Sequence record: PQ511151.1
DNA: 64,000 nucleotides
Source of the DNA: Escherichia phage NHEP36
Direction: 5' to 3' (one strand)
The notes under the pieces are model-generated. The model ran no database searches. It was not told where the DNA came from and saw only the letters and a list, made by a program, of their open reading frames with translations. The first letter of the stretch is position 1. Every line of letters starts with the position of its first letter. This document shows positions 2,182 through 4,526 of this stretch, piece by piece. A program made the position numbers and the translations under genes.

Positions 2182-2670
2182 ATGAATATATTTGAAATGC
2201 TTCGTAATGACGAAGGTCTTAGACTGTCTTTATACAAAGACACTGAAGGCTTTTGGACGATTGGCATAGGCCATTTAGTAACAAAGAACCCGTCTTTAGC
2301 CGTAGCTAAAGCTGAACTTGACAAAATGATCGGACGTAAATGCAACGGTACAATTACCCTTGATGAGGCTGAAAAGCTATTTAATGAAGACGTTGATAAA
2401 GCCGTTCGCGGAATCTTGGGTAATGCTAAACTTAAACCGGTATATGATTCTTTAGATGCTGTTCGTCGATGTGCATTGGTCAATATGGTCTTCCAAATGG
2501 GTGTAGCAGGAGTCGCTGGTTTTACTAATTCTCTTCGTATGCTTCAACAGAAACGTTGGGACGAAGCGGCAGTAAATCTAGCCCAATCTAAATGGTATCG
2601 TCAGACACCTAATCGCGCGAAACGCGTAATCTCAACATTTAAAACAGGAACTTGGAAAGCGTATATATGA
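2182..2670 (+). CDS. e: endolysin (T4 lysozyme e)
   Basis: [15 protein letters not shown]...DTEG...TIGIGHL matches T4 lysozyme; GGAGG RBS 5 nt upstream of ATG 2182. Confidence 0.95.
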
Positions 2671-2948
2671 AAACATATAGTGAATTTTTATCAGAATCTA
2701 TTCTTAACGAAGCTACCGACACATTTGCAACTAAGCTAGGTGCAGCTTTGGTTGAAGCCGAAAGTCTATTAGCACGTATTTCTGAACTTGCTAGTAAGAT
2801 AGATACTCGCAAATTTGAACGTACCAGCGATATCGTTAAGCTTGAAGCCTTGTTGCGTATGTGCGATAAACCGGAAGAAATCGCTAAGAACGGCTCGCTG
2901 ATGAAACAACGTCTTGAAAAATATATTTCAGGCGCTTCAGAAAAATAG
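2667..2948 (+). CDS. internal protein (IPIII-like, capsid-targeting N-terminus)
   Basis: N-terminus [10 protein letters not shown] resembles T4 internal-protein capsid targeting sequence; ATGA overlap with e stop. Confidence 0.6.
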
Positions 2949-2949
2949 T

Positions 2950-2979
2950 GTTTACTTCCTCCAAGGACTTTGATACTAT
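2950..2979 (+). promoter_or_regulatory. T4-type early promoter (upstream of denV)
   Basis: -35 GTTTAC, 18-nt spacer, -10 TACTAT. Confidence 0.5.
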
Positions 2980-3006
2980 ACATTCATCAACTACTTGGAG
3001 GAAATT

Positions 3007-3420
3007 ATGACTCGTATCAATTTAACACTTGTTTCTGAACTGACAGACCAACATCTTATGGCTGAGTATCGTGAATTACCACGCGTATTTGGTGCAGTCC
3101 GTAAACATGTTCAAAACGGTAAACGTGTAAAGGATTTTAAAATCTCTCCAACATTTATCTTAGGCACAGGTCACGTAACATTCTTTTACGACAAACTCGA
3201 ATTTTTACGTTTACGTCAAATCGAGCTAATCGCTGAATGCTTGAAACGTGGTTTCAAAATCAAGGACACGACTGTCCAGGATATTTCCGACATTCCTGCC
3301 GAATTTCGTAATAATTATGTCCCGTCCGAAGCGTCCATTGCGATAAGTCAAGCACGCTTAGATGAAAAAATTGCTCAGCGCCCGACTTGGTACAAATACT
3401 ATGGTAAACCAATTTACTAA
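3007..3420 (+). CDS. denV: endonuclease V (pyrimidine dimer DNA glycosylase)
   Basis: [29 protein letters not shown] matches T4 DenV; GGAGG RBS. Confidence 0.95.
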
Positions 3421-3426
3421 GGAAAA

Positions 3427-3687
3427 ATGAAAATGTGTCAAGAATTTATCGCTGAAGCAGATGACAAAGGTCCTAAATTTAAAGTTAAAGCTTTCATTGG
3501 TGATGCGGAAGACTTTAGCTCATTAAAACGTAATGGATATTTTTTCTTAGGTGGCGATGGTAAAGAAATCAACACCTATGCAAAACGTAGTGAAATTGCT
3601 TATGTTGTAGCAAGCCCTAAAGTAGATGTTGACGATATTGGATACGATTTTAACAACTTCGGAATTATTTATGGCGGTAAAGCTTAA
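3427..3687 (+). CDS. internal protein-like (CTS MKMCQEFIAEA)
   Basis: N-terminal 10 aa conserved with other IP-like genes, divergent body. Confidence 0.55.
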   Translation: MKMCQEFIAEADDKGPKFKVKAFIGDAEDFSSLKRNGYFFLGGDGKEINTYAKRSEIAYVVASPKVDVDDIGYDFNNFGIIYGGKA

Positions 3688-3690
3688 ACG

Positions 3691-3720
3691 GTTTACGCTT
3701 AAGTATTAATATGGTATAAT
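3691..3720 (+). promoter_or_regulatory. T4-type early promoter
   Basis: -35 GTTTAC, -10 TATAAT. Confidence 0.6.
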
Positions 3721-3750
3721 TACTCTATCAAAACAAACAAGGAAACAAAA

Positions 3751-4053
3751 ATGAAAACGTATCAAGAATTTATTACTGAAGCGCGAGTGAGTGCAGGTAA
3801 ATTAGAAGCCGCTATAAATAAAAAGGCCCATTCATTTCATGATTTGTCCGATAAAGACCGTAAGAAACTTGTAAGCCTTTATATTGACAAAGAGCGTATT
3901 CTCGCTCTTCCTGGCGCTAATGAAGGTAAACAGGCCAAGCCTTTGAATGCCGTAGAAAAGAAAATTGATAACTTTGCTTCTAAATTCGGTATGTCTATGG
4001 ATGACCTTCAGCAAGCGGCTATCGAAGCAGCTAAAGTAATTAAAGGCAAATAA
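3751..4053 (+). CDS. internal protein-like (CTS MKTYQEFITEA)
   Basis: T4 IP-type N-terminus; preceded by early promoter 3691..3720. Confidence 0.6.
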   Translation: MKTYQEFITEARVSAGKLEAAINKKAHSFHDLSDKDRKKLVSLYIDKERILALPGANEGKQAKPLNAVEKKIDNFASKFGMSMDDLQQAAIEAAKVIKGK

Positions 4054-4096
4054 CATGGGAACAAGCTGGACCTCATGTTTCTATGAGGGATTCCCG

Positions 4097-4196
4097 CCAA
4101 CCTGTAATAAGGTCGAGCCCAAGTGCGGTAATGGGTAAATACAGAGAAATGGACAATTCATGCGCCATGGAATGGCGCAAATCTAGAGAGAACAAA
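4097..4196 (+). repeat. leader repeat copy 1 (~100 nt, ends at start codon of 4197 gene)
   Basis: ccaacctgtaataaggtcgagcccaagtgcggtaatgggt ... catgcgccatggaatggcgcaaa; contains 7-bp palindrome tgcgcca/tggcgca. Confidence 0.6.
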
Positions 4197-4526
4197 ATGA
4201 AAACATATCAAGAGTTTATCACTGAAGTTACATTATCTGCGGAACAGAAAGCTGCTATCGAAGAAGGTAAAAATCCTAAAGTAACATATAAAGTAAATAG
4301 TAAAGGCGTTTTTGATGACTTGGTTCAAGACCCTGAATTGAAAAAAGCTCTTTCTAAAACTAATGCGTACTTTGCTCCTAAATTTAACACAGCCGGTGTA
4401 CTTATTGGATTGGATGTGTTCAACTCTAAAGGTGTTCTATCTAATGCCTTTGGTTATGCCGCTAACAAAATTACCAAAGCCGCATGGGAATCCAATACCA
4501 AACAAGCTCAAAAGCCTAGAGTATAA
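4197..4526 (+). CDS. internal protein-like (CTS MKTYQEFITEV)
   Basis: Internal Met 39 of ORF 4083..4526; N-terminus is the IP capsid-targeting motif; preceded by repeated leader element. Confidence 0.6.
   Translation: MKTYQEFITEVTLSAEQKAAIEEGKNPKVTYKVNSKGVFDDLVQDPELKKALSKTNAYFAPKFNTAGVLIGLDVFNSKGVLSNAFGYAANKITKAAWESNTKQAQKPRV

Follow-up and report, generated by a model that had tools for sequence, protein, structure and literature searches.

What kind of proteins occupy the variable stretch between the lysozyme gene e and vs.8 in a T4-like phage, and how does such a set come together? We address this question with the window, a stretch of 64,000 nucleotides (nt) of Escherichia phage NHEP36 (PQ511151.1), in which four open reading frames (ORFs) on the + strand, starting at 2667, 3427, 3751 and 4197 and here termed IP-a, IP-b, IP-c and IP-d, begin with closely similar leaders of ten codons. 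We are confident that the four ORFs encode T4-type internal proteins (IPs), which would be targeted to the capsid by this leader, cut by the prohead protease gp21 and injected with the DNA, with anti-restriction cargo and a locus that exchanges its genes as cassettes. The packaging, processing and injection of these proteins in a Mosigvirus phage are extrapolated from experiments with T4.

The site is the classical e-denV-vs.8 internal-protein locus, and its sequence identifies the source of the window as an RB69-like Mosigvirus (Tevenvirinae). The internal-protein finding is real and had been correctly interpreted in a preliminary description of this DNA, but it belongs to a well-described system and contains nothing conceptually new: of the four genes, one corresponds to T4 Ip2, two already carry internal-head-protein annotations, and the fourth is a member of the class that lacks the label. 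What that description did not say is that this is textbook knowledge and that four genes in this slot fall within the normal range of 0-5. The more unusual item at the locus is a structured RNA element on either side of IP-d.

A common leader on four unrelated proteins

The preliminary description held that the four ORFs share the start M-K-x-x-x-E-F-(I/L)-x-E and then diverge, and both a pattern scan and BLASTP bore this out. When M[KR]xx[QSE]EF[ILVM]xE was sought after every start codon on both strands of the whole 64 kb, the only matches were the four ORFs; the pattern never occurred in 100 shuffles of the window, and BLASTP among the four proteins found no significant similarity past residues 11-28. 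The leaders read MKMCQEFIAE in IP-b and MKTYQEFITE in both IP-c and IP-d, and the residues equal to the T4 leader MKTYQEFIAE number 7, 8, 9 and 9 of 10 from IP-a to IP-d. Since T4 IPII and IPIII both start MKTYQEFIAE, and (L/I)-x-E occupies residues 8-10 of all four proteins (LSE in IP-a, IAE in IP-b, ITE in IP-c and IP-d), the further claim that the leader corresponds to the T4 capsid-targeting sequence (CTS) with its prohead-protease site is supported.

The function of this leader has been established in T4, where the first ten residues of IPIII are enough to bring foreign proteins into the core of the prohead, with residues 4 and 7 important for targeting and residues 8 and 10 for cleavage (PMC9026906). 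The T4 gp21 protease cleaves after Glu, and each IP is present at about 360 copies per head and is ejected with the DNA; gp21-gp23 are core genes in all T4-related phages (PMC9026906). In the window, F7 is found in all four leaders and Y4 in IP-a, IP-c and IP-d, with C4 in IP-b. All four ORFs are intact, each with a ribosome-binding site, and the predicted mature products of IP-a, IP-b, IP-c and IP-d comprise 78, 76, 90 and 99 residues with isoelectric points (pI) of 8.1, 5.2, 9.7 and 9.6.

At the DNA level the leader forms a 34-nt repeat family, consisting of the ribosome-binding site and the first ten codons, whose copies are 68-91% identical. The copies at 3748 and 4194 differ at three positions, all of them synonymous third positions (ACG/ACA, GAA/GAG and ATT/ATC), which argues for selection on the leader peptide.

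The e-denV-vs.8 locus and its relatives

All four genes lie in one of the variable loci of T4-type internal proteins (e-denV-vs.8 or next to 57B). The order on the + strand is nudE (1689-2147), e (2182-2670; T4-type lysozyme, Pfam Phage_lysozyme, E = 9.5e-14, annotated e in RB69), IP-a, denV (3007-3420; endonuclease V, Pfam Pyr_excise and phrog_1183, a conserved gene inside the IP locus), IP-b, IP-c, IP-d and vs.8 (4699-5238; conserved, function unknown, phrog_1488, E = 1.7e-78, annotated vs.8 in RB69), the last forming the right-hand border of the locus. The equivalent T4 locus reads e-ipIII-ipII-denV-vs.8, with small genes that differ in both set and order; because T4 has only ipIII and ipII there, the statement that T4 holds fewer such genes in this slot was also correct.

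Between 1600 and 5300 the window is 97% identical to Escherichia phage PNJ-9 over 98% of the length, and 96-97% identical to RB69 and many relatives over 89-92%. The RB69 locus runs ORF127c, denV, ORF125c, ORF124c and ORF123c in a backbone 96-97% identical to that of the window; ORF127c is the orthologue of IP-a (92% identity), ORF125c of IP-b (90%) and ORF123c of IP-d (97%). The difference lies in the third slot, where RB69 has ORF124c, an unrelated CTS protein of 90 residues, and the window has Ip2 and a T4-type RNA element. A second IP locus of RB69, whose counterpart lies beyond the window, carries two further leader-bearing genes, ipI and ORF156c.

IP-c is an orthologue of T4 Ip2

IP-c (3751-4053, +; 100 residues; phrog_7857 "internal virion protein", E = 4.5e-55) is 93% identical to T4 IPII over 100 of 100 residues and 94.6% identical at the nucleotide level, and by this sequence comparison it is T4 IPII/Ip2. 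The two proteins agree in length, leader and cleavage site (MKTYQEFITE|A, giving a predicted mature product of 90 residues, pI 9.7) and differ by seven substitutions, T9A, S14G, I22V, S33P, K47R, V96A and G99D, six of which lie in the mature part. The position differs as well, in that IP-c follows denV and IP-b, whereas T4 ipII lies between ipIII and denV. In addition, the DNA of the Mosigvirus carrier contains arabinosyl-cytosine, in contrast to the glucosylated hydroxymethylcytosine of T4 (PMC13390438).

Recent work has shown that each of the T4 proteins Ip1, Ip2 and Ip3 blocks a GmrSD type IV restriction enzyme of its own, without cross-protection, the target of Ip2 being the ECOR21/BrxU-type GmrSD (PMC12373910; 2025). 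GmrSD enzymes restrict RB69 (PMC6024577), and BrxU, a member of the GmrSD family, restricts a Mosigvirus and cuts its arabinosylated DNA (PMC13390438). Based on the activity of T4 Ip2 and on the restriction of RB69 and a Mosigvirus by these enzymes, IP-c probably inhibits BrxU/ECOR21-type GmrSD, and the six substitutions in the mature part may affect its exact specificity.

A 44-nt direct repeat of 73% identity links the end of this gene with the next: it lies at 4009-4052, at the C-terminal end of Ip2 (QQAAIEAAKVIKGK), and at 4245-4288, just after the IP-d leader (EQKAAIEEGKNPKV). It may be due to chance or may be the trace of an older junction.

IP-a, IP-b and IP-d

IP-a (2667-2948, +; 93 residues; phrog_3499 "internal head protein", E = 1.2e-46) is named "putative internal head protein" in one database source, and its start overlaps the stop codon of e (ATGA). 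In its family the sequence L-N-E15|A (residues 13-15) is kept in all members, while residue 10 is E, V or N, and for this reason the IP-a propeptide is probably 15 residues long, with a predicted mature protein of 78 residues.

IP-b (3427-3687, +; 86 residues; phrog_2667 "internal head protein", E = 8.4e-18) has a predicted mature form of about 76 residues that is acidic (pI 5.2) after cleavage at MKMCQEFIAE|A. Many gene callers take the second Met as the start of this protein (MYQEF...), so that its leader goes unnoticed. Databases also contain truncated or frameshifted versions from other phage contigs (P0006, P0007 and P0009), and IP-b is missing from phage SF, in which Ip2 and IP-d are present.

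IP-d (4197-4526, +; 109 residues; phrog_3966, function unknown, E = 9.2e-32) would be cut at MKTYQEFITE|V to a mature protein of about 99 residues (pI 9.6), with a second possible site at I-E-E23|G (residues 21-23). Its cargo is present in 90 phage records, and among the 40 matches listed all annotated ones are "hypothetical protein" except for one distant match labelled RNA polymerase ADP-ribosylase. Among 1.84 billion representative proteins, HMMER found a single distant relative (P0017, 39% identity); as this protein also starts MKTYQQFITE, IP-d can be assigned from its sequence to the internal-protein class as an unlabelled member. Four long proteins that HMMER also matched to IP-d were rejected as compositional artefacts with many matched stretches, one of them (P0020) being plainly a tandem repeat. 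An ATG at 4083 opens a frame through the first copy of the RNA element into IP-d, giving an ORF of 147 residues, and the annotation of phage SF has a version of 130 residues. The 4083 start was rejected, since the extension overlies the non-coding element and RB69 has an unrelated sequence there with the same MKTYQEF start; 4197 is probably the real start and the extension an annotation artefact.

The cargos of these three proteins form narrow families. Large protein databases returned only near-identical relatives for IP-a, IP-b and IP-d; PDB sequence searches with all four proteins gave chance-level matches only; and Pfam and NCBIfam yielded no cargo family, apart from one sub-threshold DUF7412 match that starts at the leader. 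T4 IPI* (Ip1) and IPIII (Ip3) are small injected proteins that inhibit GmrSD variants, with the N-terminal targeting and processing logic predicted here and the same kind of locus (PMC3012670, PMC12373910), and the cargos of IP-a, IP-b and IP-d have no similarity to them past the leader. In particular, comparison with T4 IPI gave leader-level matches only (E ≥ 0.025); the IPI homologue of RB69 is found at the other IP locus. By analogy with the T4 proteins, IP-a, IP-b and IP-d most likely inhibit further modification-dependent nuclease variants or other defences that act early. The proposal that all four are candidate injected anti-defence effectors fits the published work on T4 Ip proteins (PMC12373910, PMC3012670), from which the packaging, the cleavage and the anti-defence role of IP-a, IP-b and IP-d are extrapolated.

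Shuffling and cassette exchange

T4-type internal proteins have been described as a highly diverse set of defence proteins whose only common part is the CTS (PMC3012670), and more than 30 variants have been reported, which occupy two hypervariable loci bordered by repeats that resemble promoters (PMC2839356); host range may change when the IP repertoire is shuffled (PMC4122927). Our survey agrees with this diversity: in 36 T4-like loci fetched through denV, in which leader-bearing ORFs were counted within 4 kb, their number ranged from 0 to 5 per locus, several phages had 4 or 5, and the cargos fell into about 14 families. The exact arrangement of IP-a, IP-b, Ip2 and IP-d was found, among 50,697 records, only in PNJ-9 besides the window. 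Gain and loss at the IP locus are ongoing, as shown by phage SF and by the truncated IP-b genes.

The history of the third slot can be read from its borders. The window follows RB69 at 97% identity as far as position 3780, at about codon 10 of the slot-3 gene, loses the similarity there and regains it 8 nt before the IP-d ATG. The segment in between comprises the Ip2 cargo and 134 nt and matches T4 at 91-95% identity, compared with only 71-78% for the nearby genes e and denV. This contrast indicates from sequence that a Mosigvirus backbone acquired a T4-type Ip2 cassette, whose junctions map within or beside the leader repeat. The Ip2 cassette would thus represent a clean natural transfer from a T4-type to an RB69-type phage, which deserves attention given that RB69 reportedly does not take part in recombination with T-even phages (PMC6024577).

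A comparable plasticity is known from PeSL-type mobile regulatory cassettes and IP-locus shuffling (Repoila 1994; Arbiol 2010; Comeau 2014), in which short conserved sequences likewise flank exchangeable genes in hyperplastic regions (PMC2839356, PMC4122927). The flanking sequences common to the window locus and the PeSL-type loci include early-promoter-like GTTTAC boxes. In contrast to the PeSL type, the junctions in the window lie in the CTS-coding repeat itself, and a structured RNA, not a promoter/terminator cassette, forms the right border.

Proposed mechanism and alternative explanations

Taken together, we propose that the ten-residue N-terminus of each protein acts as a capsid-targeting sequence that would dock it on the prohead scaffolding core, and that the gp21 prohead protease would cut after the Glu of (L/I)-x-E, in IP-a more likely after L-N-E15. 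The released cargo of 8-11 kDa would remain in the head and be injected with the DNA, whereupon IP-c may block BrxU/ECOR21-type GmrSD, and IP-a, IP-b and IP-d may act on other modification-dependent nucleases or early defences. Recombination homology for cassette exchange would be supplied by the leader-coding repeat at the 5' ends of the genes and by the RNA element at the right border.

Several observations weigh against this interpretation. The leader of RB69ORF127c, MKTYMNFYQN (MKTYMNFYQNLSLNE; locus L001, 2568-2849), has no Glu at residue 10, and that of RB69ORF123c, MKTYQEFIAAV (L001, 3993-4322), lacks it through E10A. Because these RB69 orthologues of IP-a and IP-d are without the residue-10 site, processing at residue 10 is evidently not universal, and the sequences imply that ORF127c and ORF123c must be processed differently or at downstream sites. 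Codon 4 of IP-b (3436-3438) encodes Cys where Tyr is found in eight of eight relatives examined, at a position reported as important for capsid targeting (PMC9026906); the targeting efficiency of IP-b is accordingly uncertain, and Y4C may impair its packaging. Literature searches found no virion proteomics or N-terminal data for any Mosigvirus IP, and searches of PDB, Pfam, NCBIfam and sequence families linked no specific target to IP-a, IP-b or IP-d. AlphaFold2 models were poor, with a predicted local distance difference test score (pLDDT) of 57 for IP-d (single sequence) and 53 for IP-b (alignment of eight rows). Moreover, the region directly upstream of the IP cluster has no exact late promoter, and each of the two sites before e has one mismatch.

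An improbable alternative is that the proteins are packaged but mainly structural, neutralising DNA charge as basic proteins or aiding core and head assembly like T4 IPIII. The basic pI of mature IP-c and IP-d (9.6-9.7) would suit such a role, as would the binding of T4 IPs to DNA at low salt and the slower head assembly and polyheads of IPIII mutants (PMC9026906). However, mature IP-b is acidic and IP-a near neutral, unrelated cargos are swapped among close relatives in a manner that better fits an arms race, and anti-GmrSD activity is known for all three T4 IPs (PMC12373910). Slightly less probable still is an explanation that treats the 5' segment mainly as a DNA or RNA element, with the ribosome-binding site and leader serving as a recombination linker, and some ORFs, IP-b above all, as unpackaged or decaying. 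It would account for recombination breakpoints falling exactly at the leader repeat, for the change at a key targeting residue of IP-b, for the truncated or frameshifted versions of this gene and for its absence from phage SF. Yet the synonymous differences between repeat copies point to selection on the peptide, the same ten residues package foreign proteins in T4 (PMC9026906), and the four ORFs are intact with ribosome-binding sites.

We know of no similarity between the Dar proteins of phage P1 and the T4 CTS. The DarA/DarB/Hdf system of P1 is likewise carried in the capsid, delivered with the DNA and active before phage gene expression, but Dar is tied to P1 head morphogenesis and not to the gp21/gp22 core (PMC12810830).

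A putative structured RNA element on either side of IP-d

IP-d is flanked by two copies of a non-coding element, both on the + strand and about 80% identical to each other. Copy 1 (4057-4190, core 4092-4143) is of a short, T4-type form, 91% identical to what lies between denV and vs.8 in T4, and scores 65 bits with a covariance model; copy 2 (4533-4690, core 4591-4641) is of a long, RB69-type form, lies directly upstream of vs.8 and scores 68.5 bits. These are the only two copies in the window. Their core motif reads ACCUGUAANAAGGUCNAGC...GCGGUAA, and in 32 of 32 diverse sequences the nucleotide preceding ACCUG pairs with the one following GGUAA (A-U, U-A, C-G or U-G); the G-U pairs indicate that the + strand is the folded strand.

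In the proposed fold, the long form has a pseudoknot, in which the helix P0 crosses a long-range helix. In copy 2, P0 would be formed by 4539-4543 and 4590-4594 and the pseudoknot helix by 4548-4550 and 4642-4644, and a 3' hairpin lies at 4665-4677. With a fold that was derived partly by eye from the same sequences used to score it, 97.9% of cells are paired with 6 covarying pairs, as against at most 45% paired and one covarying pair in slid controls. Some parts of the fold are variable: the register of the outermost pairs in the closing helix differs from lineage to lineage, an alternative pairing of AACC with GGUU is possible, and RNAalifold alone recovered only the invariant hairpin from the diverse set. 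An alternative closing helix proposed by RNAalifold for the long form was rejected, as it breaks in two sequences where P0 covaries. In the Klebsiella-phage group the motif lies within an RNA of about 145 nt closed by an 8-bp helix.

The element is located just upstream of vs.8 in enterobacterial T4-like phages, with blastn matches in 941 phage records, and its core hardly varies even in phages whose vs.8 protein has only 40% identity. A 19-nt core pattern was found in 52 viral contigs, and 47 of these carry the full motif. A scan of 185,579 species genomes of bacteria and archaea with the same pattern gave 38 matches, about the number expected by chance, and none of the 38 had the full motif. 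Outside the T4-like phages, tRNAs were found at 12 loci that carry the motif, and in every one the motif and the tRNA genes share a strand, with the nearest tRNA 45-600 nt away in 11 loci and about 1.7 kb away in one; these tRNA-cluster loci include Klebsiella phages of about 46 kb and E. coli phages of about 136 kb.

Other identities were tried for the element. A coding role was rejected, as copy 2 has stops in all three frames and a 2-nt length difference between T4 and copy 1 shifts the frame, and a tRNA test rejected identity as a tRNA. Within the comparison of the element with T4 rnaC and rnaD, no copy of the core motif was found in them. Rfam gave no match at gathering thresholds in the whole window and nothing relevant at E < 10 over 4040-4720, and in 12 other motif-bearing loci it returned tRNAs and group I introns only; the literature search found the element sequence in no paper.

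The annotated vs.8 of T4 (219 residues) starts about 40 codons upstream of the RB69 start, over the RNA element (NC_000866, about 64807-64938; locus L003, 2808-2939). As this extension overlies the element and its frame is not conserved in other phages, the annotated T4 start is probably over-extended.

With regard to function, the element is possibly a leader or regulator of downstream genes or else a stable small RNA, and it probably supplies homology at the right border of the cassette array. We give slightly better than even chances to a wider proposal, namely that this element of about 100-160 nt is an undescribed, phage-specific structured RNA which also serves as the right-hand recombination anchor and puts IP-d behind the same leader RNA as vs.8, and that, separately, IP-a, IP-b and IP-d target defences specific for arabinosylated DNA and not the known GmrSD types.

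Promoters and neighbouring genes

Late-promoter-like sequences, TATAAGTA and AATAAATA, are found before e at 2143 and 2150, and T4 has two exact TATAAATA at the equivalent place. Early-promoter-like GTTTAC boxes precede denV, IP-c and vs.8 in the window, and ipIII, ipII and denV in T4; the site of denV is GTTTAC...TACTAT at 2950, and that upstream of IP-c is GTTTAC-N18-TATAAT (3691-3720, +). By analogy, the expression of the IP genes probably follows T4, with late transcription coming from upstream of e, whose stop is overlapped by the IP-a start. An exact late octamer, TATAAATA, also occurs inside IP-c at 3813-3820, one of only four copies in the window, all of which are on the + strand; its T4 counterpart is TGTAAATA, and it could drive late transcription of IP-d.

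Two further ORFs were observed downstream of the locus. One of 165 residues (7979-8476), a few genes downstream of regB, has a Macro domain (ADP-ribose-binding/hydrolysing; Pfam E = 2.2e-6) and could be relevant to ADP-ribosylation-based defences. Another of 180 residues (7130-7672) has an N-terminus that by eye is hydrophobic and signal-peptide-like, together with a weak match to SLT transglycosylase that narrowly misses the Pfam cut-off (E = 5e-4).

Implications

Should the RNA motif on either side of IP-d prove real, it would represent a new non-coding RNA conserved among very different virulent phages. IP-a, IP-b and IP-d represent three uncharacterised cargo families in phages with arabinosylated DNA, and they can be screened against panels of GmrSD and BrxU variants. 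More generally, injected internal proteins are the first line of the phage against modification-dependent restriction and help to set host range, which makes them relevant to therapy with T4-like phages.

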